Of a stretch of DNA of 39,359 nt, positions 8,977 through 28,995 are shown in pieces (the first letter of the stretch is position 1; the number at the start of each line of letters is the position of its first letter). A program made the position numbers and the translations under genes. Below the pieces are notes generated by a model. That model saw nothing but the letters and a program-made list of their open reading frames with translations. It was not told the origin of the DNA and ran no database searches. Source of the stretch: a virus. Its lineage: Duplodnaviria; Heunggongvirae; Uroviricota; Caudoviricetes. The stretch lies in the IMG/VR virus record IMGVR_UViG_2563366943_000021; one strand, given 5' to 3'.

Positions 8977-8998
8977 AAACAAGGCCGCGAAAGCGGCC
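8973..8998 (-). terminator. Rho-independent terminator for the minus-strand lipoprotein gene
   Basis: Stem GGCCGC / GCGGCC, loop GAAA; T-run on minus strand; directly downstream of lipoprotein stop. Confidence 0.55.
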
Positions 8999-8999
8999 T

Positions 9000-9011
9000 G
9001 TGACATGTCAC
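9000..9011. repeat. 12-bp perfect palindrome GTGACATGTCAC (copy 1 of 3)
   Basis: Identical 12-mer also at 26720-26731 and 28984-28995; all at gene ends. Confidence 0.7.
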
Positions 9012-9388
9012 GCAACGCAATTATTACCGCGCCATGTAACATTTTTAATAATCTTATCAGCACCAAACTCAACGTAAACAGAGCAACTGAAATGGAGTGT
9101 ATAACCGCCATCAGTTGTTGCGTATGTGTTTGAATATATAGTATTACCAATTAGATTAGACGTAGTATTATACGTTGTGGTTTGTGGTACGTTATAACTA
9201 CCAGAGCTTGAGTAAACATACACTCTGTTTCCATCTGGAGATGTAAGCTCTCCCTGAGGATACCCCCACTGCTGAACCATTGCGTCTATACTCTGCCCGC
9301 GCCACGTAAGCATATTTCTTTCAAACTGTGCAGCTGACTGGCATCCAACGAGAAGCATAAATCCAAAAATCAAAAATACTTTTCTCAT
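9008..9388 (-). CDS. Lipoprotein (126 aa), prophage moron
   Basis: Start moved to internal ATG (MRKVFLIFGFMLLVGC) giving signal peptide plus lipobox LVGC; low GC; own terminator. Confidence 0.55.
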   Translation of the reverse strand: MRKVFLIFGFMLLVGCQSAAQFERNMLTWRGQSIDAMVQQWGYPQGELTSPDGNRVYVYSSSGSYNVPQTTTYNTTSNLIGNTIYSNTYATTDGGYTLHFSCSVYVEFGADKIIKNVTWRGNNCVA

Positions 9389-9607
9389 AATTACCCCTAT
9401 CATGGAAAAACAGCACCAATCCACAAATTAACTAGTTATTTTATTATTCTTCCGAACAATACAATTCCGAATACTACAAAGCCGAACCATGCCGCTGCAC
9501 GCAACAGAGATTCCAATTGAAACCCATTTTTATCAAAATGTATGAATAGCATAAAAACGCTGCACATATTAGTACAATAAAAGTTATTTGAACCATCATA
9601 TCTCCTT

Positions 9608-12082
9608 TTATTGCGGAGTGACATCCTGTGGTCGCCACCAGTATGTCTGGTTAAACTCTTTCTTCGAACGTTGCTCCATTTTACGCAAATAGCCTGGTGA
9701 AAAATACTCCTGCATCTGGTTAAAGATCATGTGATCGAGAGCCGCCTTCAAGTACCAGAGATTCGCACCAGGCATCAAACCTTTCCCCAGCTTCACCAGA
9801 TCACCACCAGTCTGCTCACTCTTCCCTTCCACAGCATTTAACGGTATGCCCTGAGCAATCTTCACTACGTCATCAACCAGACCAGCTACCGGGCCAAGCA
9901 TCGACGCCAGCGCGCCGCTTCCGTACCTAGTGTGATCTGACAATAAAAAGTCACCGTAAAGGCCAAGACCACCACCTTTCAGTAGAGCACCAAGCCAGAA
10001 TTTTGCGGCATCTTCTCCTGTCATCTCTCGAGGATTACGACCAGACGCAAGGTCGTTAAGTTGCTGCGACAAAGCGCCAAGAATGGTCGTACTGGCAATA
10101 AACGTCGCAATATATGCCGCACGCCCACCAGCAGACGGCATACCCATAGCGCGTGACCAGTGACGCATAACAACCGAGATAGGGAACGATTTAAACAGGA
10201 AAACACTTCTCGTTAATTCACCTTTCCATGTTCCACGCTGAATACCAGAACCGGTTATCAGTTGCTCACGTGCTCCCGGTGTAATAACAGCCATATCAAC
10301 TTCTTCAGTTACGGCACCGAGCAGTTTACGCATTGCCTCAAATTTCACGCGTTCAGGCTCACCAAGATGTTTAACTGCTGAATCAGGGATACGCATAATG
10401 CTTTCCGGTGTCAGCATCGTATTATTACCGTTCCCCCAGTCCTCCTGTTTCGCCAGCTTCCATACGCTCCAGTCTGTGTCAGTAATCCCTTTGCTTTTCA
10501 GGATACGAAAATCAGAGTCATCGAGGCTACGAAGGTCTGGTGTCCGTGACACTACTTCTCCCAGGCTTCCCATCATGGTTACGCCATAGGCGCGCTTGTG
10601 CGCATCTGACCATGCTGTAAGCCCACTGGCACGCATTACCGCCGTTGCCGCCCAACGAGACACTGACGGCCCCATATTATCCATCGCCCAGCGGTTAACG
10701 CTGCCAAGTAGAGATTCCATCGCCAGACCAGCGCGGCGCGCCCGCGCAAGTTCTGTACGGTTCGTTGGGTCCATAGCTTCAAGCTGGTTGCGGAATAACT
10801 GGTTCATTGGAAGGTTGGTAACCTTCGCAGACAGATACATGGTTCCAAGATCAGAGAACGATGACAGCAACGCGGATCCGAGTCTGCTGGCAACCAGCCA
10901 GTTGCGGATATTGTCAGACCATCGCGCGATGTGCGGATTCGCTACAGGCTGTGTCTTTCCGGAAATAAAGTTGTACAGATTCTCTGTGTTGTTCGCCAGC
11001 CGCTCGACTTTACCGGTTTTACTCGGGTTAGCTGTTGCCGTTTCTGCCTTCACCTGATCAAGAAGAGAGCGGAAAACATGATCGGGGTTTGGGCCATATG
11101 TTTCCACCAGTGCAATATCTTTACTGATACCTTCCAGGTGACCGACCATGATTTCCCATAGAGAGCGATCGCCATAAAGTTGCTGATATTGCAGATAGGA
11201 ATCTGCATCTTTGAAATGTATCTGTCGTGATGCATTACCACGGTTAGCACGTGCGCCGGAAATTCGCATTCCGGTATCAGTAAGCTTATTCAGCCCACCA
11301 GTAGCGATCGTGTTATAAGCCTCTCCAAGAAATGAAGACAACTCGGCATCGTTCATCAGTTGTCCATCGGCTCGGATATAATATTTGCGATCCAGCTTAC
11401 CTATAACATCGCTAACCCACTTATCCTTTGATACTGCCCCAACCTTTTCCATAGAATGATGTTGAGGGATCCCCCAGTTTTCGAGATAGCCAATGTCCCC
11501 ACCAGCATCATTAAACCGGCGGCGCAGCAGCTCTGTAACTTCTCTCCACGCCTTAGCACCGTTTCTTGCTTTAGCATTGCCAGTATTTTGCCCCCGCATT
11601 TCATATACCAGGTCACGTACGCCCGCTTCATCTTCAAACAGACCAAAAAAGCGAGGATCAACTGCTTCGAATGCCTCCTGCAATTGACTCAATGCATAAT
11701 CACGGGTGGCTTTTGTTCTGGATTCAACAGAGAGGAAATTAGATTTACCGTCTGCATTAAAAGCTATAGTACGGTTAAGAGCGCCAAGTTTCCCATCAGC
11801 CCCTTGATAGCTATTGATAAATTTATCCAATCTCTGACGCGCGGCTATAGTGAGAGCCACACGACGTTTCTTTAATGCCGCTTCTCGCTGTAATTCTTCA
11901 GATGCCAATTGTGCTGCTCGATATAGCCGCTCTGATTCGGAAAGTTGTCGCCACGACATAGGGTCATCACGAGCAATGGAGCGCATATTTCGATAAATGC
12001 GGTCTTCAATGTTCTGTATTTCTCGCGCCGTTAACATGCGCTGCGCCGCCTGCTGAACCGCTTGTATACATTCCTGTCTCAT
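9608..12082 (-). CDS. Internal virion / DNA-ejection protein (824 aa)
   Basis: Large protein in the podovirus structural block between tail tubular genes and tailspike; C-terminal hydrophobic segments; by position analogous to T7 internal core proteins. Confidence 0.6.
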   Translation of the reverse strand: MRQECIQAVQQAAQRMLTAREIQNIEDRIYRNMRSIARDDPMSWRQLSESERLYRAAQLASEELQREAALKKRRVALTIAARQRLDKFINSYQGADGKLGALNRTIAFNADGKSNFLSVESRTKATRDYALSQLQEAFEAVDPRFFGLFEDEAGVRDLVYEMRGQNTGNAKARNGAKAWREVTELLRRRFNDAGGDIGYLENWGIPQHHSMEKVGAVSKDKWVSDVIGKLDRKYYIRADGQLMNDAELSSFLGEAYNTIATGGLNKLTDTGMRISGARANRGNASRQIHFKDADSYLQYQQLYGDRSLWEIMVGHLEGISKDIALVETYGPNPDHVFRSLLDQVKAETATANPSKTGKVERLANNTENLYNFISGKTQPVANPHIARWSDNIRNWLVASRLGSALLSSFSDLGTMYLSAKVTNLPMNQLFRNQLEAMDPTNRTELARARRAGLAMESLLGSVNRWAMDNMGPSVSRWAATAVMRASGLTAWSDAHKRAYGVTMMGSLGEVVSRTPDLRSLDDSDFRILKSKGITDTDWSVWKLAKQEDWGNGNNTMLTPESIMRIPDSAVKHLGEPERVKFEAMRKLLGAVTEEVDMAVITPGAREQLITGSGIQRGTWKGELTRSVFLFKSFPISVVMRHWSRAMGMPSAGGRAAYIATFIASTTILGALSQQLNDLASGRNPREMTGEDAAKFWLGALLKGGGLGLYGDFLLSDHTRYGSGALASMLGPVAGLVDDVVKIAQGIPLNAVEGKSEQTGGDLVKLGKGLMPGANLWYLKAALDHMIFNQMQEYFSPGYLRKMEQRSKKEFNQTYWWRPQDVTPQ

Positions 12083-12087
12083 TTAAT

Positions 12088-13890
12088 TTAACCTCTCAAG
12101 AAACACGCCACAGCGACATCAAACAGGCTGGAATCCTGTATTGCCTGCTCACTTTCCCTGTTCGCTTCATCCAGTGCTTCACGCGCACTGCGCGATTGTG
12201 GATTACCATCATCATCCAGCACGGTGATTATCATGTCAGGTGATTCAAGCAGCGAGTCTTCAGCTATGCGCAAATCAATATCTCCTGCCTGATCTGACAT
12301 CATTTTTTGTTCTGCCTGTTGCAATATTTTATCAGGCTCAAAAGGAGCTACTTCGTCTGGCGTCCTGACCTCTGCTGTTTTATAGAATGAAACAGCCTGA
12401 GCATTAAGTTCACTTTCTGCCTGCTGTCTCCGAGCCAGTTCTGCTCGAGCTTCAAAAAACTGACCGCCAGGCTCATGCGGTGCCAACGCGTTACGAGAAA
12501 ATTCCAGGCGTTCTTGTGCCTGCCGGATTCGTTGGTCAATATCGCGAAGTCTGGCCTGTTTATCTGATCGAGCACGAGATAAAGCCTTACCGCTACCGGC
12601 TGGATCTTCTGCAAGAATTTGTGCGCGCTGTTCAGTGAGATTTTCAATAATTCGTTGGCTATTAGCGATTTCAGACTGGTAAACCTGTCTATCGCCACGC
12701 GGCAAAAGCTGCGCGGCCTGTTCTTCAAGCAACCGATTTTCTATAGCGCGCGCCGTTACTCCATCATCTACAGATGACAGAGCCTCATTAACTGCCTGAG
12801 ACAGCAGACTCTTGCGTCCAGGAATTTCACTGAAAGATGCAGACTCAACAATGCTGGCAACGTCTACAGGTCTCCCCTGGCTAACATCAGACATGGCTTT
12901 TCGCAGAGCCTGAATGTGCGAATTACGCGAAAGCACGTTGATCGGCACGCCGGGAGCAATATCAATTTCAGCATGATGAGCGGCATTCGCCGCCAGTGCA
13001 GCATCGATATCAACTGGTGAAAAATTTGGTGCGCTTGTAGACTCGCCGCGAGAGTTAATAAATCTGCCGACACCACCAAACGCCACCCCAAGAACAGCAT
13101 CAATAGCAATTGCCTGTCGATCCAACACATCATACTGGTTAGCCATTTCGCTATAGCCACCATCACGAAGCGTTTTTGCAGTAAGCCCACGCTGTGCCAT
13201 ACCGAACGCAATATTTGTACCTGCGGCATAGGCAATATCTGGCGTTGCACGTACTGCTGTTGCTGCGGCGCGTCGCACTGAACTTTCACCCGTCCGCGCA
13301 AGCTGAGCCGCCACACCTTCCGCCAGCGCACCACCAGCACGTAACCCGAGGCTCATAGGGATCAGTGTTCCGGCACCAGCAGTAATACCCTGCACTAATC
13401 CCGCTTCCTGCGCCGTCCTGAAATCAACACCCTGTGCTGTAAGCCGTTCAAACTCAGAAAAACCCTGTAGAGAAGTTACCGCCGCAGCACCTCCGACCGG
13501 ACCACCGAGCGTTGTACCGACAACAGCCTGCCCGCCCATATCGAACAACCCATAAAGGACCTGCCCGGCGGTTCCGGTTGTCGCGGCATCAGGCGTCAGC
13601 CGCTTAACCTGCTGCTCTGCTAGTTTTCTCTGCTCAGCAATGTATGAAACTGAAGTGTCATTGATCGAGGTGTTTTCGTTAACAAACTGAGCAATCGGGG
13701 ATACGATTTTATCCATCCCTGCCCATAGCAACTGATCTGGCTTTGCCACCAGCCCGGAGTACAAACCAGACAATGCCGCTCCTACAGCATTGTCGAAAAA
13801 ACCAACATCGCTGTTAAAGCCAGCTGGATTTGATGCTGCTTCGTCAAGCTGCTGATTCTGGTTTACTGGATTAAGGCCAAAGTAACTCAT
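12088..13890 (-). CDS. Internal virion protein (600 aa), Gly/Ala-rich
   Basis: Position in structural operon; composition typical of internal core proteins; no specific family recognised. Confidence 0.55.
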   Translation of the reverse strand: MSYFGLNPVNQNQQLDEAASNPAGFNSDVGFFDNAVGAALSGLYSGLVAKPDQLLWAGMDKIVSPIAQFVNENTSINDTSVSYIAEQRKLAEQQVKRLTPDAATTGTAGQVLYGLFDMGGQAVVGTTLGGPVGGAAAVTSLQGFSEFERLTAQGVDFRTAQEAGLVQGITAGAGTLIPMSLGLRAGGALAEGVAAQLARTGESSVRRAAATAVRATPDIAYAAGTNIAFGMAQRGLTAKTLRDGGYSEMANQYDVLDRQAIAIDAVLGVAFGGVGRFINSRGESTSAPNFSPVDIDAALAANAAHHAEIDIAPGVPINVLSRNSHIQALRKAMSDVSQGRPVDVASIVESASFSEIPGRKSLLSQAVNEALSSVDDGVTARAIENRLLEEQAAQLLPRGDRQVYQSEIANSQRIIENLTEQRAQILAEDPAGSGKALSRARSDKQARLRDIDQRIRQAQERLEFSRNALAPHEPGGQFFEARAELARRQQAESELNAQAVSFYKTAEVRTPDEVAPFEPDKILQQAEQKMMSDQAGDIDLRIAEDSLLESPDMIITVLDDDGNPQSRSAREALDEANRESEQAIQDSSLFDVAVACFLRG

Positions 13891-16400
13891 TGCGGAATAT
13901 CTCCGGAGAATCTCTGACGCTTCTGTGTCAGATTAAGAACAACGGGAGAACCATCATCTTTCAGCAGATAACCAGTACCAAGTTTCACCAAGTACTGACT
14001 ATCGCCGTAACTTTGCAAACCATACTGACCAGGCGGTGTTTTTATCCCGGAGCCGACAACTTGTTCATTCCAAGCCTGATTAACCTGCTTATCGAATTGC
14101 TCTGCAGACATTCCCCACGGCAAAAGGACATTCCCCATTCCGTTATAGTCATGCACGCCACCTGTAGCTACGTTAACAGCCTGTTTCCAGACATCATTGT
14201 CAATTTCGCCTGATACCACGCCTTTTTTCGCCATCACACCAGCGTAATAATCCTTTGCGATCTCGTATGCCATTGATGCGCCCTGAGCGTCACCAGCAAA
14301 TGCATCCTTCACCATGTCAGAAAACTCAAGGCGAAGATCAGCATCTTTAGGCATCGGAATACCTTTCGCATCATCAGTACCTTTACGAGCCGCCGCGCCA
14401 GCAAGAATTGTCTGCGCAGCGGTTTCAGGAGACACGGAAACATCCGGATTAAACCAGTTTTTTTCTGCCAAAATACCACCAGGCTTATCCATCAGTATCC
14501 CGGCAACGGCAGCAGATGGAGCGTTGGCACTGATCTGCTGTAGTGCTGACATATACACCTGCCCACCACCAGTGCTCTGCCTGATGGTATCGAGATATGC
14601 TGCCTGTTGGGAAACTGGAGCATCACGAAAGAAAACACCGATCTGATTGGCCTCGTCTTTGGAAAAGAACGTCAGTGGAGTGCCATATGACTTAGCAAGG
14701 TCACTGACCTGAGCGGCACGCAAGGCAACGCTCTGTCCAAAGTTATCCTTATTGCTCATGTCGATAGGCTTTGCCTGTCCGGAGGCAAGAGAGAACTGCA
14801 CAGGATCCGACTGCCGCTGCTTTATCACCTGATTTGCAGCCGAAACAACGTTGTCATAAAGAGTTGCGCGTGCCGCATACCCCTCCCCTGTATCACCAGT
14901 ATCCGGGCGTAATTGCTCAACATATGCTGTAATGCTGCTTGTCGGCATGTTGCGGAAAGAGCCTATATACTGTCCGGCGATCTGCGTATTCTTAAACTCG
15001 GTATATCGCAGGTTTCCTTCTCTGACTCCATAAGCTGCAATAAAATCATCCTCACCAGGTGGGTTAGGAAATTCAATGCCACGCATATACGCAGCCGTCG
15101 CATCGCGAACCCGGCTGTCGAGCATCGTTTTATATTCAGCCTGCTGTTGTCTGGCTAGTGCATCAGTCTGTCGCAACACGCTGGCCTGATCTGATTCACT
15201 TAAAGCATCGAACCAGGCTACACCGGTATAACGTTTATTTTTTGTCGGTAGCTGAGAAAGCCCCAGCGCAGCACTAACACCTGCAGTTAACTGCTGATCA
15301 CTGTATGGCTGGCTACCGTTTTCATGATGGATAATGGCTGCACAAAGCGCCTTCAGGGTATCAGGATTTGATGCATCGAGAGGCTCATCAGCAGAAACGC
15401 CAAGTTGTTCGCACACTGCTTTGATATACGACATAGTGTCATTTTTATCAGTAGGCGGTGCCCAGCGATTAATTATCTCGCTGACGGTATCAATACCCTG
15501 CCGCTGATACGACATCAGGTTCCGCCCTAATGCACGAATACCGTGTTCAGGGGTTTCGAATTTGGCAAAGCGACCATCATCACCAGTCTGCCCAACCCAC
15601 GGATTAGTTTTGCTGTATTCAAGATTGCCGGGGTTATTGTTGCGTATACCGCGGGTACGATCGGAAGAGCCACTATCTGCTACAGCACGGCGAGAACCAG
15701 CAGCAGTATCGCTTAACTCGCCGTTTTGCTGTCTTACCTGAAGATAGTTTGCTCCAATAGCATTTTGAGCAGTTGCTTTTGCTGTTGCTTCTTTAAACTC
15801 GATTTTCTTGGCCTGGATTTGCTCGTCACTCCAGCCATGTGCAATGCCGTAATCCTCAATTTGCTGGAAAGTTTGCTTATTAGCCAATACGTATGCGGCG
15901 TTGTCGCCATACAATGCTGCGGCATTTTTACCATTGTTCAGCAGCGTAGCCTGAAACTGGCCTTCTTCGTAGGCATTTATTTGCCCTATCTCGTGCCGCC
16001 CGGCCTGCGTAGTGAACTGAATGCGCTGCTGCTGCGCCTGCTGCATGAAAGCATTACGAGCCTGTTCATCCGGCAGCGACATAGCCAGTTGTTCGACCTG
16101 AGCATCAAACTGCTGCGTATACTCCTGACCTTTTCCAATAGCATTTTTCCCTTTCAGGTTAAGCAAACCTGTTTCAGGGTTATTCAGCAGATCGCTGCTT
16201 ATCTGGCTTAAGCTAAGAGAAGCATCCTGAGCCATAGCAACATTCGCACGCTGTTTTGCCTGCGCAATAATACCTGCATATTGCTCTGCAACATCGCCAA
16301 GTACATCACCGACATTTGGTGTCTGAAACGATGAGAATCCCTGCGTCGAAATCCCTCTGCTCTGAACCTGACGGCCCGATGTTGTTGGTACAACTGGCAT
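13887..16400 (-). CDS. Internal virion protein (837 aa)
   Basis: Position in structural operon, translationally coupled to neighbours. Confidence 0.55.
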   Translation of the reverse strand: MPVVPTTSGRQVQSRGISTQGFSSFQTPNVGDVLGDVAEQYAGIIAQAKQRANVAMAQDASLSLSQISSDLLNNPETGLLNLKGKNAIGKGQEYTQQFDAQVEQLAMSLPDEQARNAFMQQAQQQRIQFTTQAGRHEIGQINAYEEGQFQATLLNNGKNAAALYGDNAAYVLANKQTFQQIEDYGIAHGWSDEQIQAKKIEFKEATAKATAQNAIGANYLQVRQQNGELSDTAAGSRRAVADSGSSDRTRGIRNNNPGNLEYSKTNPWVGQTGDDGRFAKFETPEHGIRALGRNLMSYQRQGIDTVSEIINRWAPPTDKNDTMSYIKAVCEQLGVSADEPLDASNPDTLKALCAAIIHHENGSQPYSDQQLTAGVSAALGLSQLPTKNKRYTGVAWFDALSESDQASVLRQTDALARQQQAEYKTMLDSRVRDATAAYMRGIEFPNPPGEDDFIAAYGVREGNLRYTEFKNTQIAGQYIGSFRNMPTSSITAYVEQLRPDTGDTGEGYAARATLYDNVVSAANQVIKQRQSDPVQFSLASGQAKPIDMSNKDNFGQSVALRAAQVSDLAKSYGTPLTFFSKDEANQIGVFFRDAPVSQQAAYLDTIRQSTGGGQVYMSALQQISANAPSAAVAGILMDKPGGILAEKNWFNPDVSVSPETAAQTILAGAAARKGTDDAKGIPMPKDADLRLEFSDMVKDAFAGDAQGASMAYEIAKDYYAGVMAKKGVVSGEIDNDVWKQAVNVATGGVHDYNGMGNVLLPWGMSAEQFDKQVNQAWNEQVVGSGIKTPPGQYGLQSYGDSQYLVKLGTGYLLKDDGSPVVLNLTQKRQRFSGDIPQ

Positions 16401-16412
16401 CTTATTATCCCC

Positions 16413-16952
16413 TTATCGACCGGTTGGAGTGCCAACAGCAGCAGAAATCGGCGCAGCCTTCTGAGAGAACGGGCTCCACGTTCCGCCGCCCATCTGGTAT
16501 GCACCGTATGCTTTTAGTGGTGCCGTTAACAAAGTGCTGGTCATCGATGATTTAGCAGCCGACTGAGCAGCAGCCCCCTGTGCCTGAGCATTCATTCCCT
16601 GAACCTGATACCCATATGCCTCACGCTGAGCATTATTCACTGTCGTTAACGCATCAAGAGTGCCGAACTGAGCATTATCCGCAAAAACGTCAAGAGCTGT
16701 TCCGCTACTTAATTCCGCACCGGTAGCCCCCATAGTGGCCGCCGCAGTGCCTGAGCGTTGACGCATTTCACGACGACGCTGATCCGCTTCAATATTCCCA
16801 CGATTGATTGAATCCTGTGCCTGAGCTTCAGCAATTTCAGCATTCCGATCAGCTATGGCTGACTGGTATTTTGCCTGCTTGCTCTGGCTGTACATTGACG
16901 CGGCTGTGGATGCCACTGTGACGGCAACCAAAGCGATGGCTGGGTTACACAT
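16413..16952 (-). CDS. Internal virion protein (179 aa)
   Basis: Position downstream of tail tubular genes; Ala/Gln-rich. Confidence 0.5.
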   Translation of the reverse strand: MCNPAIALVAVTVASTAASMYSQSKQAKYQSAIADRNAEIAEAQAQDSINRGNIEADQRRREMRQRSGTAAATMGATGAELSSGTALDVFADNAQFGTLDALTTVNNAQREAYGYQVQGMNAQAQGAAAQSAAKSSMTSTLLTAPLKAYGAYQMGGGTWSPFSQKAAPISAAVGTPTGR

Positions 16953-17416
16953 TATTTTCTCTCCATGTGAAATCTGTGGAAATTAAGACCAAGAGCACCA
17001 TAAGGCGCGGCTTCTTCAAGCCTGAATCCAAGCCAGTGCAGCCATGCTTTGGCAACATGGTTTCGCTCGTCGACGTAGTTTTCCAGGCGCGGATAAACTG
17101 CCAGCATCTGCTGCAATACATGGCGGCAGTGGCGAAGAAATGTCTTCTGATATTTTTCAATACGGCTGGTTCCTACCAGCCAGGGCGTACCATTGCCACC
17201 GATCATTGACGCCGGAGATACGCCAAACATGGTTACCAGTTCTCCGTTCGCAAATCCTGACCAGGCCATAGTCGCAGTACGCAGACCAACACGCAGCGCA
17301 TCTTCGGTAGTCATCAGTGATACCGCATACAGTTCGTCAATATCAGCCTGACGAACATCCGGCAAAATCATCTGAAGATGCTCTTCGGTTGCGGGAATAA
17401 TTTGAACATCGATCAT
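16952..17416 (-). CDS. Virion-associated hypothetical protein (154 aa)
   Basis: Position; ATGA-type overlap with upstream gene. Confidence 0.5.
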   Translation of the reverse strand: MIDVQIIPATEEHLQMILPDVRQADIDELYAVSLMTTEDALRVGLRTATMAWSGFANGELVTMFGVSPASMIGGNGTPWLVGTSRIEKYQKTFLRHCRHVLQQMLAVYPRLENYVDERNHVAKAWLHWLGFRLEEAAPYGALGLNFHRFHMERK

Positions 17417-20821: not shown

Positions 20822-20822
20822 T

Positions 20823-20849
20823 CCTGCAATAAAGGGGCCGAAGCCCCTT
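20823..20849 (-). terminator. Intra-operon hairpin / partial terminator
   Basis: Stem AAGGGGC / GCCCCTT, loop CGAA, followed by TTTATT on the minus strand. Confidence 0.35.
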
Positions 20850-20865
20850 GTCTGATCCGCGAGGC

Positions 20866-21201
20866 TTACACGCCCAGTTCTTTACGCTTATCTGCGATCT
20901 TCTCGCGGAGCGTTTCTGCTTTGGCGTTATGGTGTGGCTTCTCGTTAAAGAGCAATTCGTACTCTTCACGGAGCTTATCCAGTTCACCATCATCTGACAC
21001 ATCGTTGATGATTTTGGTGCTGGTTGCTGCCATTGACACCTTTCCTGCAACTTTTGCTTTTGCCTGTCTGGCTGCATCGTTAACAGGTTCCAGTGCGCTA
21101 CCAGGCTCACCTTCGTATTCGATTTCTGCCCCCTCCGGCCACAGAGTGTTATGGATATGAGAGAGGCGCAGAACGCGGTATCTTGGTTTCTCACCTGACA
21201 T
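20866..21201 (-). CDS. Hypothetical structural protein (about 111 aa)
   Basis: Start set at ATG 21201 with RBS AAGGTGA (tracked start is GTG 21210). Confidence 0.5.
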   Translation of the reverse strand: MSGEKPRYRVLRLSHIHNTLWPEGAEIEYEGEPGSALEPVNDAARQAKAKVAGKVSMAATSTKIINDVSDDGELDKLREEYELLFNEKPHHNAKAETLREKIADKRKELGV

Positions 21202-21211
21202 CAATATCACC

Positions 21212-21649
21212 TTAACCAGTTACTTTTGAGCGGATCGGATACGGCGTATTGGCATCAACATCAAGATTGATACCCGCAGTGAATTTGCCAGCCGTTAGTG
21301 GGCCAGTTGCGACGGAGTAGTTAACACGCAGATATCGCTGAACACCGGCTGGCACCTTTGCAGAAACAACTCGCTTACCTGCTGTCAGGGTGGCCTTTGC
21401 CAGTGCGCCACTATCATAAATAGTGGACCATGAGCTGTTATTCTCACTCGTCTGCAACTGGATGTTTACAGTTGCCTCACCACTTGCCGTGGCGGCTTCG
21501 TTAACCAGCACCCAAAACTCAAGCGGATAACCCACGCCGATATCGCGACGGTTTCCATCAATTGGACCGAGATCGATTACGTCAGTAGAAGCCGCGGTAT
21601 TCGTAACCGCCTGAGCTTCGGAGAACATCAACAGTTTGTCGGTGATCAT
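21212..21649 (-). CDS. Putative capsid decoration / head accessory protein (145 aa)
   Basis: Immediately downstream of major capsid gene; beta-rich Thr/Ser/Ala composition; assignment by position only. Confidence 0.4.
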   Translation of the reverse strand: MITDKLLMFSEAQAVTNTAASTDVIDLGPIDGNRRDIGVGYPLEFWVLVNEAATASGEATVNIQLQTSENNSSWSTIYDSGALAKATLTAGKRVVSAKVPAGVQRYLRVNYSVATGPLTAGKFTAGINLDVDANTPYPIRSKVTG

Positions 21650-21664
21650 CTTCTTTCTCCATTA

Positions 21665-21684
21665 GTGGGCCTGTTGCGGCCCAC
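21665..21684 (-). other. Stable hairpin immediately downstream of major capsid gene
   Basis: Stem GTGGGCC / GGCCCAC with 6-nt loop; no U-run. Confidence 0.35.
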
Positions 21685-21700
21685 AGGTTAATAACAGGCG

Positions 21701-22687
21701 TTACACCACGCGGGCTTCTGTTTCCAGAAGTGCGTCAGTTTCGCGAATCGGCACACCACGAAGTTCTGTCCACCATTCGCCTTCTGTCTCTTTCACGCTG
21801 ATCGCCAGAGAACTCTTCTCCAGAGATTGCAGGTCAAGCACTTCGTTAATGGTTCTGTTCATGTAGAAAATAGGACGTCCCATCCCACGATTTGGGATTC
21901 GATGAAGGGCACGAATCATCAGTTTTGCGATATTCGCAGCAGTAGAAGGAGCGTCAAGATTGCTGACATCGATGTTTGCAATGCGAACAACATAGCGCCA
22001 GTCACGCAATGTCAGCCCGTTGTCCCACTTATAATGGGTACGATAACCTTCGTACTTGCCGCCATTAGCATCTTCCAGTGTCACCTGGCCTTTATCTTCC
22101 ATCTGGATGCCAGCCTTCTGCCCTTTCGGGAAGATGCCATGCACGGTGTTTTCGCCCCACACCACTAACCAGATTGAAGTGTTATCTGTACCCGTGCCAC
22201 CAGCATCAATGATGTTCTGAGCATTACCCGCAGACAGGCTGGAATAGCGGGAGGACAGTCCCATAAACTGCTGAGGGTTAACGCTGGAATCACCGTAAAA
22301 CAGCGTCTGCGCCATCGCCTGATTCATCGCTTCAATAAATGCTCGGTCTTCAGACAGGCGGAATTCGGCAGTATTACCGTTCAGATCAGCCAGAGACTTA
22401 TCGACTTCAGCATAGGTTTCCAGCATGCCAATGGAATCAGTGACCTGCACCGTTGTTGATTTGCTCGGTTGTACGCCATAGTTCAGCAAACGCCAGGTAG
22501 CTGAAGGTAAACCAGAACGAATGGTGGTTCGGTGTCCGGTAGGAAGGTTCCCTTCGACAAAAGGCATATCCTGAAGGATCGGGTTAGTTTGACCGAGAAG
22601 CTCGATAATCTTATCGACTTTCCCGTTTGGATCGACGCGCTTACCCCAGTCAGCCAGCGTTAGCGCAGTTAAGCCTTTAACAGCCAT
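21701..22687 (-). CDS. Major capsid protein
   Basis: About 328 aa; follows scaffold gene; start set at third codon ATG for better RBS spacing (GAGAGG); recalled similarity to epsilon15-type capsid proteins. Confidence 0.75.
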   Translation of the reverse strand: MAVKGLTALTLADWGKRVDPNGKVDKIIELLGQTNPILQDMPFVEGNLPTGHRTTIRSGLPSATWRLLNYGVQPSKSTTVQVTDSIGMLETYAEVDKSLADLNGNTAEFRLSEDRAFIEAMNQAMAQTLFYGDSSVNPQQFMGLSSRYSSLSAGNAQNIIDAGGTGTDNTSIWLVVWGENTVHGIFPKGQKAGIQMEDKGQVTLEDANGGKYEGYRTHYKWDNGLTLRDWRYVVRIANIDVSNLDAPSTAANIAKLMIRALHRIPNRGMGRPIFYMNRTINEVLDLQSLEKSSLAISVKETEGEWWTELRGVPIRETDALLETEARVV

Positions 22688-22701
22688 TGTCATTTCCTCT
22701 C

Positions 22702-23403
22702 TTATTTGCCATAGAGCACTTCGGCCGCACTACGCTGGCCTTCATTACCACCGGTGACCATGCCATCTTCAGACATCGCCTTTCCGATTTTCACGAACGT
22801 TTTGACCAGATCAGGGTGATTACCCAGCCCGGTGGTGTTCAGATATTCTTTGAGTTCAGGTGTCCCGAACTGGTCAAGCGCACGCTGTGCGGCGCTAAGG
22901 TTAGAAATCAACTTGTCGCCACCGATTTCTTTGTCGGCTTTTACATCCGCAGCCCACTGCTCGGTTGTTTTCTGCCAGGCTTCTGCCTGGCGCTGCTGAA
23001 CACCTGCCAGAATCTTCGGATAAGCATCAACCAGCTTTTGCGCTTGCTCGTTGGTCAGGTTTAGTTCTCGCGCCACCGGCTCGAATTCCTTCAACGCTTC
23101 TGTATCCAGCTCTACGCCTTCGGCAGCCTGAAACTCGTACTTTTCAGGCGCACCCTCTGGTTTATCGCCGTCCTTTTTTTCATCCTGCTTATCGTTTTCA
23201 GGCTTTTTGTCATCAGCAGGTTTATCGCCATCAGCAACAGGTTGTGGCTTATCACCTTCCTGTTGTGATGGATCACCAACTGGAGCAGGGTTATCACCTG
23301 CAGGCGCTGACGGTTCTGACGCAGCCGGAGCTGCTCCACCATCGACTGGTTGCTCATTGCAAAGACGGCGATACAGCAAACGCTCAAATAAATTCATGAT
23401 CAC
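22702..23403 (-). CDS. Scaffolding protein
   Basis: 233 aa, highly acidic and Lys/Ala/Pro-rich, low complexity; between portal and capsid. Confidence 0.65.
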   Translation of the reverse strand: MIMNLFERLLYRRLCNEQPVDGGAAPAASEPSAPAGDNPAPVGDPSQQEGDKPQPVADGDKPADDKKPENDKQDEKKDGDKPEGAPEKYEFQAAEGVELDTEALKEFEPVARELNLTNEQAQKLVDAYPKILAGVQQRQAEAWQKTTEQWAADVKADKEIGGDKLISNLSAAQRALDQFGTPELKEYLNTTGLGNHPDLVKTFVKIGKAMSEDGMVTGGNEGQRSAAEVLYGK

Positions 23404-23696
23404 TCCTGTTCACTGGCCTCTTTGGCCATCTTCAAATACTGTTCAGGGCAATGCGCCATAACGCGCTGAAACAGTTCCAGCGCCAGATTGCGTTGCCCCT
23501 CATTAAATGCCATTGCCATAGCATCCATCGGAGAGATAGCGGAAAACACCCGGCCTTTCTCCAGCACCGACCAGACAACGCGACGCCCCTGTTCACTGCT
23601 CATGACAAAGCGAATGTCATCAATTTCACGCTGTGCCATGTCACGTTGCTTACGGGCGTTTTCTTCTTTCAGTTGATCGTCTTCGTAATCTGTCAT
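23400..23696 (-). CDS. Hypothetical protein (98 aa) between portal and scaffold
   Basis: ATGA-type overlaps on both sides. Confidence 0.5.
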   Translation of the reverse strand: MTDYEDDQLKEENARKQRDMAQREIDDIRFVMSSEQGRRVVWSVLEKGRVFSAISPMDAMAMAFNEGQRNLALELFQRVMAHCPEQYLKMAKEASEQE

Positions 23697-25372
23697 TGTG
23701 ATTGCCCACCCTGACCACTAACTGCATTCGCCATAGCTGACAAAACACTCGGATCCGAAGTTTTAGCTTCGCTTAGCGTCTTGGCACCCTGTGCCGCCGC
23801 CATCCCCATCGCCATCATTTGTTGCTGCTGTTGTTGCTGTGCCCGTTGCTGGCGAGCCTGCTCAACCTGTTCCTGCGGAACAATGACGGTTGGAGACACT
23901 CCGGACATATCAGCGAATGCATCGATCGCCTGATCAACGTTGAGTTTGTCGAGAGCTTCTGGTTTCGCTTGCGCAAGTTGACCAATGAAGTTAACCGTGG
24001 ACGCCAGACTGGACAGGCCGATAGACTTCTGCGCCTGAGCCATGACGGAAATGTATTCGACCTTCAGGGGCATACCTTCCATCACGTCTGGCGGTGGCGG
24101 CAGCATGTTTTTACGCACCATCATCGAGAAAGCGCGGTCAATGAGAGGATTAAGACATTCGTCGTTCAGACGCTCCAGAACCGGCCCCAACATCAGAAGT
24201 TTTTCTTCTTTCATTTCGATCACCGCTTCAACAGGCATCGAGCGGGTATTGATGTTCTGCAACATCATGAACAGATCGACAAAGTAGGCGCTGTTAATGA
24301 TTTGACGGGTGTCCTGAATGTCTGCCACCAAATCTGCTGTACTGGGGTTAACCAGATAAGCAGGCCTGAAACCATCCTGACCAGTAATCTGATCGATATA
24401 CGTGATGTCGCCAGGAAGAAGGGAGGCACGCTGATTCTTGAGGGAAGTCGGAGCAACCATCGGCGGATTGGTGGCTTTATCAATCAACTGCGACTTGCGC
24501 TTCTGGAGAAGCTGCAATGCCTTAACAGGTCCAAGCGCCAGCATACCCGGGCATGATGATCCATAAACATCTTCGCCGTTAACTTCCCAGCGCGGAGCCA
24601 TAATTGGAAACTCATCGAATCCGGACTCACGCAACAACTTGTCGTTATCGCCACCAACCTCGTAATAAACCGATTTGAATGGCTTGTTCTTGCTATCCAG
24701 CTTCGATGTATCGCGGTCAATGTTCGGGTAAACCGAATGCATCACTTCAATCCACTTCTCGTAGGTGCCGCTTTCCCACATGCTTTTTACGGATTCGCTG
24801 ACGTTATTTAGCCCGAACTCCTGAACAAGCTGACGAACAGTCATAGAGAACTTGCGAAAACAGGTGTCCACACTGCCACGAGGTGAGTTAGCCAGGTAGT
24901 AACTGCCTATCGGGAATGGCATTGTGCGAATGATGTCCTCGTCATCCTCCAGCACCGCCATTGCACCAGTGCTGTATGTGCCGAGGCTTCCGTATAACTG
25001 CGGAAGAGACTGGTAGAGATTCGACTTATTGAACATATCGTTCATGCGGTTCTGCACCGCCTCAAGCCACAACTTAACAGGGCCATAATCCATCATTTCA
25101 GGATCTGGCGTAGCCAGGCGAAACCACGGACGCGCGGGGCTTGTGATGCCTGACATCATGCCGCTGGCGAGAGTGCGCGCCGCCATAGTCCCGGTCGAAT
25201 CAATAATGCGTGTATTGCGTCGATCGTTACGGTTGACCTCAGAAGTCAGAAAGCGGGAACCACGCGGGTTGATGTAATCACTCAACTCGCGCCAGTGCGG
25301 CTCGAACGACTGACGCTCGCTTTCAAGTTGTGCGAACTGTTTGTTCAATCGCTCTTTAGTTGTTTCCGCCAT
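23693..25372 (-). CDS. Portal (head-to-tail connector) protein, T7 gp8-like
   Basis: 559 aa; Gln-rich C-terminus QQQQQQMMAMGMAAAQGA resembles T7 connector C-terminus (recalled); RBS GGAG; follows terminase region. Confidence 0.8.
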   Translation of the reverse strand: MAETTKERLNKQFAQLESERQSFEPHWRELSDYINPRGSRFLTSEVNRNDRRNTRIIDSTGTMAARTLASGMMSGITSPARPWFRLATPDPEMMDYGPVKLWLEAVQNRMNDMFNKSNLYQSLPQLYGSLGTYSTGAMAVLEDDEDIIRTMPFPIGSYYLANSPRGSVDTCFRKFSMTVRQLVQEFGLNNVSESVKSMWESGTYEKWIEVMHSVYPNIDRDTSKLDSKNKPFKSVYYEVGGDNDKLLRESGFDEFPIMAPRWEVNGEDVYGSSCPGMLALGPVKALQLLQKRKSQLIDKATNPPMVAPTSLKNQRASLLPGDITYIDQITGQDGFRPAYLVNPSTADLVADIQDTRQIINSAYFVDLFMMLQNINTRSMPVEAVIEMKEEKLLMLGPVLERLNDECLNPLIDRAFSMMVRKNMLPPPPDVMEGMPLKVEYISVMAQAQKSIGLSSLASTVNFIGQLAQAKPEALDKLNVDQAIDAFADMSGVSPTVIVPQEQVEQARQQRAQQQQQQQMMAMGMAAAQGAKTLSEAKTSDPSVLSAMANAVSGQGGQSQ

Positions 25373-25386
25373 TTCAATGACTCCGG

Positions 25387-25593
25387 TTACTGACCAAGCA
25401 GCGTTTTACCGCTGGTATTAGCGGTTGATGTGTCGCCCTGAGAACCGGTAAGCAGCGTAGAACTACGACCAGCAGCAGCGCGACGGCGACGAGTTTCTTC
25501 GTCGCGGGCATCAACAACGGCGGCATCCTGCTCCTGTGGTGCTGCCTGAACTTCTGGTGTTGCAGGCACTGATGGTGAGCTACCCATGCACAT
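25387..25593 (-). CDS. Hypothetical protein (68 aa) upstream of portal
   Basis: RBS GGAG; translation-initiation region GGAGTCATTGATATG nearly identical to that of portal. Confidence 0.4.
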   Translation of the reverse strand: MCMGSSPSVPATPEVQAAPQEQDAAVVDARDEETRRRRAAAGRSSTLLTGSQGDTSTANTSGKTLLGQ

Positions 25594-25683
25594 ATCAATG
25601 ACTCCGTACGCAATTAAATTATTACCAATTTAACCACATATGATTTATTTATCGTAGGTAGTTGACATTTAACGCACAAATTA

Positions 25684-25698
25684 TTACCTTTCAGGTAA
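25684..25698. promoter_or_regulatory. Operator site TTACC-TTTCA-GGTAA, with TTGACA hexamer 17 bp upstream
   Basis: Perfect inverted repeat at the upstream edge of the plus-strand tRNA moron. Confidence 0.55.
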
Positions 25699-26020
25699 CC
25701 AAAGAGTTCATTCCGGTTACTAACCTGACTGGCTTGTCGTTAAATTGAACAGGTGGAGTGAGCTTTTATTTTGAGCAGTACGGCGTATGGCACATGCGCC
25801 GATAGCGGTCTGGATACGTTTAAGGGGCACCCTCCTTTGCTCGGGCAAACGAACCAGGTAGCCGGAATGTGCAAGTCGAGCGGTTTTATTCCGCGCACGG
25901 GGATTCACCATCCCGGCGATTCGGTGTGACGCCTCGGAAGAGACGAGGGTACAACGATGAGAGCATTTATGGAGCCGCGACAAAGTGTGGCGCCTTAACA
26001 GGCTAAGTGCTCTCAGCGTT

Positions 26021-26097
26021 GTGGCATTAGCTCAGCTGGACAGAGCAACCGCCTTCTAAGCGGTTGGTCGCAGGTTCGAATCCTGCATGCCACGCCA
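26021..26097 (+). tRNA. tRNA-Arg (anticodon UCU)
   Basis: Hand-folded cloverleaf: 7-bp acceptor stem GTGGCAT/ATGCCAC, D-arm GCTC..GAGC, anticodon stem ACCGC/GCGGT with loop CTTCTAA (anticodon TCT), T-arm GCAGGTTCGAATCCTGC, discriminator G, encoded CCA. Confidence 0.8.
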
Positions 26098-26140
26098 GAA
26101 TCACGCCTAAGGACCGTGATGCCAGAAGTTCCAGGTGCTT

Positions 26141-26183
26141 GGCGGTGATGGTTTCCCTTGAAGAACTATCACCGCCCTTTTTA
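26141..26183 (+). terminator. Rho-independent terminator downstream of tRNA
   Basis: Stem GGCGGTGAT / ATCACCGCC with 17-nt loop, followed by CTTTTTAC. Confidence 0.5.
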
Positions 26184-26260
26184 CAGCAGGACGCCATTGC
26201 GATGACTTCATGCTGTAAACCAGTACAGCCACGGAAGGCATAACTCATTGCTTCCAGTTC

Positions 26261-26284
26261 GCCCGGGTCGCCGGGCATTTTTTT
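26261..26284 (+). terminator. Second rho-independent terminator, 12 nt upstream of the 139-aa ORF
   Basis: Stem GCCCGG / CCGGGC followed by 7 T. Confidence 0.5.
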
Positions 26285-26295
26285 AAGGTGAGATC

Positions 26296-26715
26296 ATGAA
26301 AACAATTGATATGTTGGCTAAGTATCTAAATGAATGGCCATTAAAATATTCTCGTATCGTTCAGGCTGAAGACTGCGTTTTTTATGGCGTTTTTGCTGGT
26401 AATGAAATGCATTACGAAGTAATTCAGAGTGAGGGACTGGCCGGGTTAACTCTTAGCGAAGACCATGGTACTAGCGTTACGTTCCATGACTGGATAACAG
26501 CACAACGTTCTGAAATGGAAAAAGGCGATGTGTTTGATATTTCTCGCGCTGTTTACGCTAAAGCAAAAAGTGATAATGATTACATGAGCGAACACTTATA
26601 CAACATGAAGTTACAATGCCTGCATGCGGCGCTTATTCAGAATGGGCACTTCGATAAAACAAGTGCCATCAATATTGCGGAAGCCATCAACGCTGGATTT
26701 GATGCCATTAAGTAA
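26296..26715 (+). CDS. Hypothetical cytoplasmic protein (139 aa), moron antisense to the late operon
   Basis: RBS AAGGTGAG; no TM or signal peptide; no family recognised. Confidence 0.55.
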   Translation: MKTIDMLAKYLNEWPLKYSRIVQAEDCVFYGVFAGNEMHYEVIQSEGLAGLTLSEDHGTSVTFHDWITAQRSEMEKGDVFDISRAVYAKAKSDNDYMSEHLYNMKLQCLHAALIQNGHFDKTSAINIAEAINAGFDAIK

Positions 26716-26719
26716 CACC

Positions 26720-26731
26720 GTGACATGTCAC
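26720..26731. repeat. 12-bp perfect palindrome GTGACATGTCAC (copy 2 of 3)
   Basis: Directly after the 139-aa ORF stop and before a terminator. Confidence 0.7.
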
Positions 26732-26735
26732 AAAC

Positions 26736-26762
26736 AGCCAGCCGATGAGCTGGCTTTGTTTT
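26736..26762 (+). terminator. Rho-independent terminator closing the plus-strand moron
   Basis: Stem AGCCAGC / GCTGGCT, loop CGATGA, then TTGTTTT. Confidence 0.6.
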
Positions 26763-26805
26763 ATCCTCATCAGAGGATATCAACGACATTATCCCCACTA
26801 GCGGA

Positions 26806-28281
26806 TTAAGCATAGGGATCGTAATCTGTGATGGCCTTGCCTTGCTGGTTCTGCTGTCCTGGTATATTTATGCGTTTCGAGACCGGGAAAGCAAACGTCA
26901 GCAATAGCGCATCGCCTTTCCCCGGCGAACGCCCAAGTCGCTCTTTGATATCTTCCTTCGGTTCGATAACGATTTTACCGTCCACGCGAACTTTGTACTC
27001 TGCCGTCGACAGGTCGTCCGCTGTTTCCCGGTCATCCAGCATGCCGCCGAGCCTCAGCCATGTCTTGCATGAGTTGAACATCTCCCCACGCTTGTTGAGC
27101 ATCTGCGGGTCAGTAGACGCGCCACCGAATGGAACAAGTTGCCATGTGCGCCCCCAGCCGTCACCGATTGACTTCAGCCCGGTTCCATAACCGAAGTCGA
27201 TGAACACCGCGTCAGCCTGATACTGGTCTTCAAAGTCAGCGATACGCTTCGCCATAATCAGATCGTCGGTGGTCTTGTTACCAGTCCATAGCACCTTACT
27301 GTGCAGCCCCTGCCGCAGGTATATCACAGCGTCATCAACGCCGGAGTATGCCGGGTCAACGCCGATTATCACCGGAGCATGTGCCACCTGCGCAGCGGTT
27401 ACCACCCGTTTCATTGCCTCGTCAGTAAGACCGGTAGGGATAAACTGCAATTCAGATGCATCAGGGAATATGCCGCGCACACGTATTTTAACGAAGTCGC
27501 TGTCTTCCCCGTAGTCATCAACCCATTTCTGCAACTGCTGTTTGTTGGTGCCTTCCACCGTCCGGCTGTCAATCTGCGCAGTTTTCCAGCGGTGTTTATA
27601 TTTGCGGAAACATTCGCGGAAACGTCCGGTATTACGCGTCGGGTTTCCGAACGCCACCCAGATAATCTCAGTGTCTTCGTCCGTTAGCGCACCCTCGGCA
27701 ACTTCCCACACCAGATCCGCAATGTTCGACGCTTCATCGAATACCACGATGATGCGTTTACGCTCGTTGTGTAGTCCGGCGAATGCCTCAGTGTTGTGCT
27801 CAGACCAGGGGATTGCGTCAGCTCGCCACCGCTTGTCGTGCCCAGGGTCATTGCTGTACATCGCGGTAGCGGTACAGGTAAACCAGTCTTTCGTGATAGC
27901 AAGGTTTGACCACTTGATAATTTCCGGCCAGGTCTTCGTTCGTAGCTGGTTGTCGGTGTTGGCGGTCACCACGACCTTACAATCCTCGCAAGTGGACATG
28001 CCCCAGTTGATCAGCATTGAGATGAATGCGGATTTACCAATACCGTGACCAGAAGCACGTGCCAGCATAAGCGGCTGATATCGCGTCTCTGGATTCTGCA
28101 GGTGATCACGTATCTCTCGGAACGCATCGGCCTGCCACTGACGTGGACCGGTGGCATGTGCCAGTTCAGTACCCTCTTCCCCCCACGGGAACGCATAGAG
28201 GGCATAGCCAAGCGGATCGTGAGTGAACCCTGCAATATCCTCGATCAACTGCTCTTCAGGAGATAACGCTGCATCTGTCAC
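26806..28281 (-). CDS. Terminase large subunit
   Basis: 491 aa; Walker-A-like GHGIGKS near N-terminus and nuclease-like C-terminal half; adjacent to small subunit gene with 4-nt overlap. Confidence 0.85.
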   Translation of the reverse strand: MTDAALSPEEQLIEDIAGFTHDPLGYALYAFPWGEEGTELAHATGPRQWQADAFREIRDHLQNPETRYQPLMLARASGHGIGKSAFISMLINWGMSTCEDCKVVVTANTDNQLRTKTWPEIIKWSNLAITKDWFTCTATAMYSNDPGHDKRWRADAIPWSEHNTEAFAGLHNERKRIIVVFDEASNIADLVWEVAEGALTDEDTEIIWVAFGNPTRNTGRFRECFRKYKHRWKTAQIDSRTVEGTNKQQLQKWVDDYGEDSDFVKIRVRGIFPDASELQFIPTGLTDEAMKRVVTAAQVAHAPVIIGVDPAYSGVDDAVIYLRQGLHSKVLWTGNKTTDDLIMAKRIADFEDQYQADAVFIDFGYGTGLKSIGDGWGRTWQLVPFGGASTDPQMLNKRGEMFNSCKTWLRLGGMLDDRETADDLSTAEYKVRVDGKIVIEPKEDIKERLGRSPGKGDALLLTFAFPVSKRINIPGQQNQQGKAITDYDPYA

Positions 28282-28874
28282 TGATTGCCATCCTGACGTT
28301 CTTTCAGTCTCTTCCTGGCTGCTGCTATGCGATCAGCAATTGTCACATTCACATTAACATCCAGGCGCTCTTTGAACGCGTTGACGTCGACGTGCTTACC
28401 GATAAGCTCGAGGTTCTTCACCTTGTCAGGCCATTTAATTTTTTTGAGGATTGTCTCTATCGAATCCTCGTTCATGTTCATGATGGTCGATGACAGATCA
28501 AAGCCGCTAAGCGTAGTGCGCCAGATTTTCGGCCACTCGCGGATTGGCTTAAGGCTCCCATCGTCGTTGAGGATATCAATCACGTCCATCTGGTCGATCT
28601 CCACCAGGCGCATGAGAACGTAATCAGCACTGACGCGCATTCGTTTGTTGCGCTCCTCCATCAACTCGGCAATGCGTTTTTGAATGCGTTCATCGCGCAT
28701 CATGACACTGGCTTTAACTGCCGCTGTATTTGGGGAGAATCCTGCGTTAATCGCTGCATGAGTCTGGTTTTCAGGCGTTTTGATGTATGACTGGCAATAA
28801 GCCTCCTGCATTGCTGTTAGTGGCTTAAATTGCGTTGATTTGCGTTTATAGGTTTTAGGTTCAGCAGGCATCAT
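28278..28874 (-). CDS. Terminase small subunit
   Basis: HTH-like segment NQTHAAINAGFSPNTAAVKAS typical of small terminases; immediately upstream of large subunit; start set at internal ATG 28874 (tracked 28970 start has no RBS). Confidence 0.65.
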   Translation of the reverse strand: MMPAEPKTYKRKSTQFKPLTAMQEAYCQSYIKTPENQTHAAINAGFSPNTAAVKASVMMRDERIQKRIAELMEERNKRMRVSADYVLMRLVEIDQMDVIDILNDDGSLKPIREWPKIWRTTLSGFDLSSTIMNMNEDSIETILKKIKWPDKVKNLELIGKHVDVNAFKERLDVNVNVTIADRIAAARKRLKERQDGNQ

Positions 28875-28983
28875 AACCACCGTGGTAATAGTTACCGTTG
28901 TGGTAATAGTACCATGCAAAATAAAGCCGCCATAGTTGGCGGCAGTATTCAAAACCATCAAATTCATCATGCATAATCTACTC

Positions 28984-28995
28984 GTGACATGTCAC
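28984..28995. repeat. 12-bp perfect palindrome GTGACATGTCAC (copy 3 of 3)
   Basis: Overlaps stop codon of the 112-aa gene, upstream of terminase small subunit. Confidence 0.7.

Follow-up and report, generated by a model that had tools for sequence, protein, structure and literature searches.

The stretch of DNA analysed here (the window, 39,359 bp; IMG/VR record IMGVR_UViG_2563366943_000021) is a prophage of the phiV10/epsilon15 type (genus Uetakevirus), in which packaging and structural genes occupy the minus strand from about position 28871 down to 9008. It contains three exact copies of the 12-bp palindrome GTGACATGTCAC, at 9000-9011, 26720-26731 and 28984-28995 (copies 1, 2 and 3), and no others; copy 3 overlaps the stop codon of a gene for a small protein of 112 amino acids (aa), which is our candidate for the reader of the palindrome. 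Base composition predicts 0.0023 copies of the 12-mer, corresponding to a Poisson probability of about 2e-9 for three or more, or about 8e-6 once corrected for the 4096 possible 12-nt palindromes. None of 100 dinucleotide-preserving shuffles yielded even a single copy, and no other 12-nt palindrome recurs in the window. Exact scan, shuffles and Poisson estimate therefore agree that three identical palindromes exceed chance, as the original prediction had supposed. One single-mismatch copy, GTGCCATGTCAC, lies at 23633-23644 within the minus-strand open reading frame (ORF) 23400-23696; it is also present in phiV10 (5306) and TL-2011b (16873), though not in epsilon15, and is probably coding sequence or a chance occurrence. 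The possibility that the 12-mer is simply common in the host genome received a weak test, with no copies in 107 kb of E. coli K-12. A full-text literature search for the 12-mer gave no match, a prior mention in the epsilon15 or phiV10 genome papers being possible, and literature searches on related terms returned nothing relevant; the epsilon15 GenBank record has annotations for terminators and repressor sites and none for this motif.

Each copy sits at a junction between transcription units. The 112-aa gene (28992-29330, minus strand; the phiV10 gp55/epsilon15 gp49 family) is the last of the early-right genes; copy 3 takes in its TGA stop (28994-28992) and is upstream of the terminator t1 and the small terminase gene. 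The terminator-like hairpin of t1, GCCGCCAACTATGGCGGC with its T-run (28916-28943, minus strand), separates the early-right operon from the terminase genes; the hairpin proper (28943-28926, minus strand) begins 40 nt downstream of the palindrome. Two operator-like repeats of the form ATTACC-N5-GGTAA (28874-28907), found between t1 and the probable small-terminase ATG at about 28871, are context and stand outside the palindrome system itself. Copy 2 lies where the large terminase gene (26806-28281, minus strand) converges with a 139-aa accessory gene, or moron (26296-26715, plus strand; PHROG 4846, function unassigned), 4 nt after the moron stop (in the context TAA-CACC) and 4 nt ahead of a plus-strand terminator-like element, AGCCAGCCGATGAGCTGGCT followed by TTGTTTTATC (26736-26765, with the hairpin at 26736-26755). 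Copy 1 ends the long minus-strand structural operon and holds the TGA stop (9010-9008) of its last ORF (9008-9424, minus strand; 138 aa as listed; PHROG 3716, function unassigned), and the hairpin (8999-8982) of a minus-strand terminator-like element, AGGCCGCTTTCGCGGCCT followed by TGTTTTTAAC (8972-8999), abuts it. Read along the plus strand, the same hairpin follows a 77-aa gene (8743-8976), and the palindrome then takes the place of the T-run.

The elements beside all three copies combine a GC-rich hairpin with a T-run, as intrinsic terminators do, while the palindrome itself is outside the hairpins and forms no part of the terminators. The original prediction had placed the copies at 26720 and 28984 correctly, and the proximity to terminators that it claimed for two copies extends, at distances of 0, 4 and 40 nt, to all three. 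Its placement of copy 1 between a lipoprotein stop and the corresponding terminator has to be revised, however: the canonical terminator there is on the minus strand and serves ORF 9008-9424, and from the plus-strand “lipoprotein” gene (8743-8976) the palindrome lies past the hairpin rather than before it.

Comparison with related phages shows that the same 12-mer occupies all three corresponding junctions in phiV10 (2262, 19493, and a copy divided between the record ends), epsilon15 (2142, 19517 and 39612) and Tyrion (2702, 20377 and the record ends), and two of the three in TL-2011b; over the structural region, DNA identity to the window is only about 77-82% for epsilon15 and Tyrion. In IMG/VR, 77 of 80 loci have the palindrome at the stop codon of the homologous gene, many of them with a second copy after the large terminase gene. 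As the 12-mer is retained at equivalent junctions, the original prediction, which was to be abandoned if related prophages lacked it there, survives this comparison. A degenerate fourth copy at the end of the lysis genes was also considered and rejected, as the epsilon15 sequence GTGACATGGCAT (26618) has no counterpart in the window.

At all three sites, similarity among the relatives stops within 0-7 nt of the palindrome. Downstream of copy 3 there are at least four unrelated contexts, including the terminator with the small terminase gene, an inserted 70-aa gene, and a LexA box with umuD-like genes; next to copy 2, at least nine unrelated accessory genes were found, most of which end in TAA CACC before the palindrome; and ahead of copy 1 the relatives have about five different ORFs, while the palindrome and the terminator stay in place. 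Copies in relatives that are not linked to the 112-aa gene family show the same proximity to terminators, 54 of 58 being within 12 nt of a hairpin with a T-run. The suggestion that the palindrome is a recombination hotspot promoting moron exchange thus stands in part: the sites do coincide with mosaic and moron breakpoints, but such coincidence is expected for any conserved short element and is no proof of a dedicated recombination function. As a separate observation at copy 3, in eight relatives (loci L053, L057, L077, L082, L083, L156, L157 and L161) a consensus-like promoter is located about 10-60 nt past the palindrome at the regulator stop, together with a LexA box (CTGT-N8-ACAG) and a umuD-like gene; this unit reads as a putative SOS-controlled moron inserted between the regulator and terminase genes.

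In its general form, the motif is GTGAC-NN-GTCAC, of which GTGACATGTCAC is the local version, and it travels with one gene. At loci encoding members of the 112-aa protein family, it overlaps the TGA stop in 132 of 153 cases and is found 4-31 nt past the stop in six more. We also scanned one genome per species, which gave 32 loci at 52-88% protein identity in Citrobacter, Klebsiella, Pantoea, Erwinia, Enterobacter, Xenorhabdus, Providencia and Proteus: here 12 loci have the motif over the stop and another 11 have it 5-7 nt further on, the Xenorhabdus arrangement being TGA-nnnn-palindrome-hairpin, and in most of the remaining loci it is 1-4 kb away. Distant homologues, at about 37-44% identity, retain the motif as well. 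N15 gp46 and its phiKO2 counterpart end in GTGACTGGTCAC, and the homologue in P2-like Yersinia phages ends in GTGACGCGTCAC, although the flanking DNA is unrelated among N15, phiKO2, these Yersinia phages and the Xenorhabdus prophages. Since the stop is TAG or TAA in some loci, or a TGA separated from the motif, the motif is no by-product of C-terminal coding sequence.

The most distant setting is that of Vibrio phage K308, which has a homologue at 37% identity and three motif copies in 36 kb, two of them exactly 19 nt ahead of start codons, including that of the small terminase gene; a genome scan queried with the Vibrio homologue gave no matches. Overall, the carriers span temperate phages of the podovirus, siphovirus and myovirus types, extra motif copies occur in the same genomes as the gene-linked copy, and DNA that matches the gene together with its palindrome occurs in 659 of 5426 complete E. 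coli genomes (about 12%). It is unusual for a site to be tied to its own gene at the stop codon and 3′ end, to be placed at operon ends and to be spread among phages of these three types. A different arrangement was noticed in three Xenorhabdus prophages (L176, L181 and L183), where GTGACATGTCAC is found 3-4 kb upstream of the homologue and a conserved gene (M-S-H/R-...ALNAI.PRL) appears to start at its central ATG, 7 nt past a ribosome-binding site, AGGAGG.

The arms of the motif and its 2-bp spacer are fixed. In a control set of 2.39 Mb of fetched loci, which are partly related, a bias shared by the spacer and arm controls, GTGAC-Nk-GTCAC with k=2 was found at 255 sites in 133 distinct contexts, whereas k=0, 1 and 3-9 gave 0-6 sites each; for 60 permutations of the arms at the same loci, the median was a single site. 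The central dinucleotide, on the other hand, differs even between close relatives (AT, AG, AC, CT, GT, GC, TG, CG and GG), and the same duplex can lie either way round with respect to the gene, again among close relatives (AG versus CT, AC versus GT). What the arms conserve, even in lineages at about 31% protein identity, is the sequence itself and not merely complementarity. Invariant arms around a drifting centre, with both orientations in use, are the signature to be expected of a symmetric dimer that reads two half-sites on duplex DNA.

The same observations bear on the possibility that the element acts at the RNA level, as a translational operator, a nut-like antiterminator site or a processing signal at a small hairpin. 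All copies are in transcribed DNA at gene ends, several of them immediately 5′ of a terminator hairpin or 9-19 nt ahead of a start codon; the N-terminal helix of the protein is rich in arginine; and in N15 and K308 the copies with an asymmetric centre mostly have one orientation with respect to transcription. However, the hairpin that the 12-mer could form in RNA has at most 4 bp and -1.2 kcal/mol, no better than shuffled sequences (z about 0), and neither a common fold among the three sites nor an Rfam family at any of them was found. Imperfect copies such as GTGTCCGGTCAC and GTGACCGGCCAC break the pairing without any compensatory change, so that the stable covarying stem of N/nut-type sites is absent here. 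Together with the use of both orientations, and with a predicted protein fold whose matches are DNA-binding ribbon-helix-helix (RHH) proteins, this leaves an RNA element improbable, and the processing signal included in the original prediction was dropped along with it.

About equally improbable is a passive module boundary, in which the palindrome would be a short linker without any partner protein, used for homologous or microhomology exchange with the aid of a phage RecT-like system. The breaks in similarity at 0-7 nt, the many unrelated neighbours at all three sites and the RecT/RecE-type module annotated in relatives would all fit. Such a linker leaves unexplained, however, both the tracking of one gene across podovirus-, siphovirus- and myovirus-type genomes and the fixed arms with a 2-bp spacer and a drifting centre, and any conserved functional site would become a breakpoint too.

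We next turn to the protein itself. The product of 28992-29330 belongs to PHROG 536, which carries the label “transcriptional regulator”, and no Pfam or NCBIfam family was found for it. Its predicted layout comprises a basic N-terminal helix, an RHH-like core and a C-terminal Cys4 zinc module. The AlphaFold model, built on a 40-sequence alignment, has a predicted local distance difference test (pLDDT) score of 92, and its top Foldseek match is the structure of TTHA0139 (5ytp; probability 0.82), which we take to be an RHH protein; Pfam RHH_5/RHH_1 gave weak matches in a few family members, and a BFVD fold search no informative match. In the same alignment, R13 and three cysteines are invariant and R8 is nearly so, which suggests a basic N-terminal arm and a Cys4 zinc module. 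The Pfam and NCBIfam searches also revealed no nuclease or methylase signature.

The zinc module recalls the C4 proteins of the DksA/TraR group, factors that insert a helix with an acidic tip into the secondary channel of RNA polymerase. The C-terminal helix and the pattern C-x2-C-G-x2-[LIV]-P...G...C align with TraR and YbiI, and hhalign gave a probability of 59.6% against TraR, as opposed to 0.2% against MatP. Yet these two, although the best matches of the family profile among PDB sequences, were non-significant (E 0.28-0.4), NCBIfam PRK11019 matched a single family member at E 0.096, and there was neither a zf-dskA_traR entry among the Pfam matches listed nor a structural match to TraR. 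In addition, the aligned helix is helix B of the RHH-like core, which makes a free channel-inserting tip doubtful, and the TraR likeness is to be taken as a lead only.

Given this evidence, we propose, with a probability of roughly 0.6, that GTGAC-NN-GTCAC is the cognate double-stranded DNA site of the 28992-29330 protein. Of the roles listed in the original prediction, that of a binding site for a phage regulator, perhaps the zinc-ribbon protein, appears best supported, as the gene carries the motif at its stop in distant phages. A dimer of the protein would bind the site, its RHH-like core and the N-terminal R8 and R13 reading both GTGAC arms, and the bound protein would most likely act on transcription that crosses operon junctions, namely at the end of the early-right operon, at the convergent junction past the terminase genes and at the end of the structural operon. 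Its conservation would also make the element the breakpoint for exchanges of neighbouring accessory genes.

What binding might achieve can be suggested only tentatively. At both convergent junctions the palindrome is on the hairpin side without a T-run, where a bound protein would stop the opposing transcript; acting as a junction insulator or roadblock, which we consider possible though less than even, it would make a one-way terminator effectively two-way. The comparison with known roadblocks (LacI, CodY and CcpA) is apt in that a protein bound beyond a T-run-less hairpin could halt transcription and two copies lie at convergent junctions, but here the effect is inferred and the geometry differs in other carriers, where sites precede start codons. 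We know of no dedicated phage-encoded junction roadblock of this kind. Considerably less likely are two more elaborate versions, in which gene and palindrome would make up a widespread kind of phage cassette not described before: an RHH domain with a TraR/DksA-like zinc finger parked at operon ends, where the DNA-tethered protein would exert site-specific control of termination or read-through on arriving RNA polymerase, or a “mini-MatP” that would bridge the 12-bp sites into operon-sized loops. Antitermination by a DNA-loaded factor is a further possibility, as is architectural bridging between sites.

Several points weigh against assigning the palindrome to this protein. The link between the two is purely comparative, and many of the loci are related, so that site counts overstate the number of independent events. 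The motif is missing from the vicinity of the homologue in L090, L093, L174 and the Proteus loci. RHH regulators do not typically have their operator at the 3′ end of their own gene. The position of the motif with respect to neighbouring signals also varies among carriers: it may precede a terminator, lie 9-19 nt ahead of a start codon or cover the start codon, and in N15 it lies about 60 nt upstream of a promoter-like site, with about 24 nt separating it from a TTGACG-18-TAGAGT match in the leader of the antirepressor; because of this variability, the regulatory outcome is not readable from sequence. Finally, proximity to terminators may simply mark where a compact genome has non-coding space.

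One of the closest parallels to the proposed protein-site pair is MatP, the organiser of the E. coli Ter macrodomain, with its site matS, for which the consensus GTGAC[AG]N[TC]GTCAC is 13 bp long and which prophages are reported to avoid (PMC3603311). Both systems combine a palindromic site having identical GTGAC/GTCAC arms with a reader containing an RHH element (a predicted one in the phage protein), and in both a few dispersed copies lie kilobases apart, mostly in non-coding DNA. They differ in that the phage motif has 12 bp and a 2-base spacer, as opposed to 13 bp and a 3-base spacer, with the 13-bp form being unenriched here (6 sites versus 255); in that the phage family shows no detectable MatP homology (a relationship rejected by hhalign) and has a Cys4 zinc module instead of a four-helix bundle and coiled coil; and in that the phage site is phage-borne and coupled to the gene of its proposed reader. 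The element would work like a matS-type palindromic docking site while standing outside the matS system itself. These differences also bear on whether a host factor, MatP or another enterobacterial regulator, binds the palindrome: the spacer, the scarcity of the 13-bp form, the lack of similarity to MatP and the reported avoidance of matS by prophages all speak against it, and linkage to a phage gene points to a phage-encoded reader, making a host factor quite unlikely. It may be added that GTGACACCGTCAC, which fits the 13-bp matS consensus, occurs in K308 (L155, 19491-19503), where it overlaps the TGA stop of a small membrane-protein gene, and in L090 (9363), such 13-bp forms being rare in the set at 6 sites.

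Systems that pair a small RHH-type protein with a palindromic site are already known. Arc, Mnt, CopG, MetJ, omega and the toxin-antitoxin (TA) antitoxins are likewise small proteins of a similar predicted fold class that recognise short inverted repeats, with several dispersed sites per replicon in the case of omega. Their operators, however, overlap promoters, usually their own, whereas here the sites are at gene 3′ ends or operon ends and the sole promoter-like match is unconserved; the phage protein also has an extra C-terminal zinc module. That match arises if the palindrome is read as a -35 element, GTGACA resembling TTGACA: copy 3 gives GTGACA-18-CATGAT (9/12), and copies 1 and 2 give none. 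As it is not conserved in other lineages, a -35 function was rejected.

The order at copy 3, in which the last early gene is followed by a DNA site, a terminator and the late (packaging) genes, resembles that of lambda Q with QBE-PR′-tR′, as does the way in which gene and site travel together as a cassette. Unlike Q, the 112-aa protein has no homology to any Q family (no Pfam or NCBIfam match was found), the extra copies of its site lack a promoter, and the -35-like match is not kept in other lineages. The idea of a Q-type late activator is weakened further because carriers such as N15, phiKO2 and the P2-like phages have their own Q or Ogr-type regulators, N15 and phiKO2 encoding a separate Q-like protein. 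It was rejected also in view of the repressor-type operators and the extended -10-like element (the latter read by eye) that precede the small terminase gene.

Least likely of all is an enzyme target, that is, a methyltransferase, restriction, homing or packaging (cos/pac) site. The phage does encode an MT-A70-type methyltransferase, the phiV10 and Tyrion GenBank records start and end within the palindrome, and one copy lies just upstream of the small terminase gene both here and in K308; but the variants share no methylation core, those of N15 and the P2-like phages lacking CATG, an annotated P2-like Yersinia phage carries no methyltransferase, and the linked protein has no nuclease or methylase signature, so the MT-A70 methylation that the original prediction had put forward for testing was discarded. 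Three packaging sites per genome would be odd, and a cos/pac role was rejected as the phiV10 record is merely cut after the last stop codon and Tyrion is reported to be circularly permuted and terminally redundant (PMC5754475), its record ends therefore being arbitrary.

If the protein does read the palindrome, an unannotated 112-aa “hypothetical protein”, with relatives in phages of many Enterobacterales and in Vibrio phages, would gain a defined DNA target. Late regulation of epsilon15/phiV10-type phages is, to our knowledge, uncharacterised, and the pair would offer a testable handle on how these phages keep their early, packaging, structural and accessory transcription units apart. It would also explain why accessory genes are swapped at exactly the same nucleotide, and it raises the question of how a 12-bp phage site is related to a 13-bp host site with identical arms.

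Additional features of regulatory interest were noted in the window. The inverted repeat ATTACC-N5-GGTAA(T) occurs at about 12 places, versus 0.26 expected (6618, 6998, 8066, 25683, 28873, 28891, 30987, 31049, 32988, 33373, 34085 and 34147), and the same motif is annotated as repressor-binding sites in the epsilon15 GenBank record. Its copies are found ahead of late units, those for terminase and portal among them, and also ahead of the immunity region, which suggests that the prophage repressor acts directly on late promoters; two of them overlap the stretch directly ahead of the small terminase start and follow an extended -10-like TGGTACTAT (read by eye). Rfam matches above the gathering score correspond to an isrK Hfq-binding RNA (7050-7126) and a C4 antisense RNA (7151-7234, plus strand), upstream of ORF 7268-7993, in what resembles an antirepressor control locus of the P1/N15 style; the leader of the corresponding antirepressor operon in N15 holds one of that phage's three GTGACNNGTCAC sites. 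Within the replication-initiator-like minus-strand ORF 31859-32692, three exact copies of ATCCCGTTTTTGGG follow one another in direct orientation every 24 bp (32289-32350) and look like origin iterons. Finally, the accessory region that separates the terminase genes from the portal gene contains a tRNA-Arg gene (anticodon TCT; 26021-26097, plus strand), a short distance upstream of the 139-aa gene.

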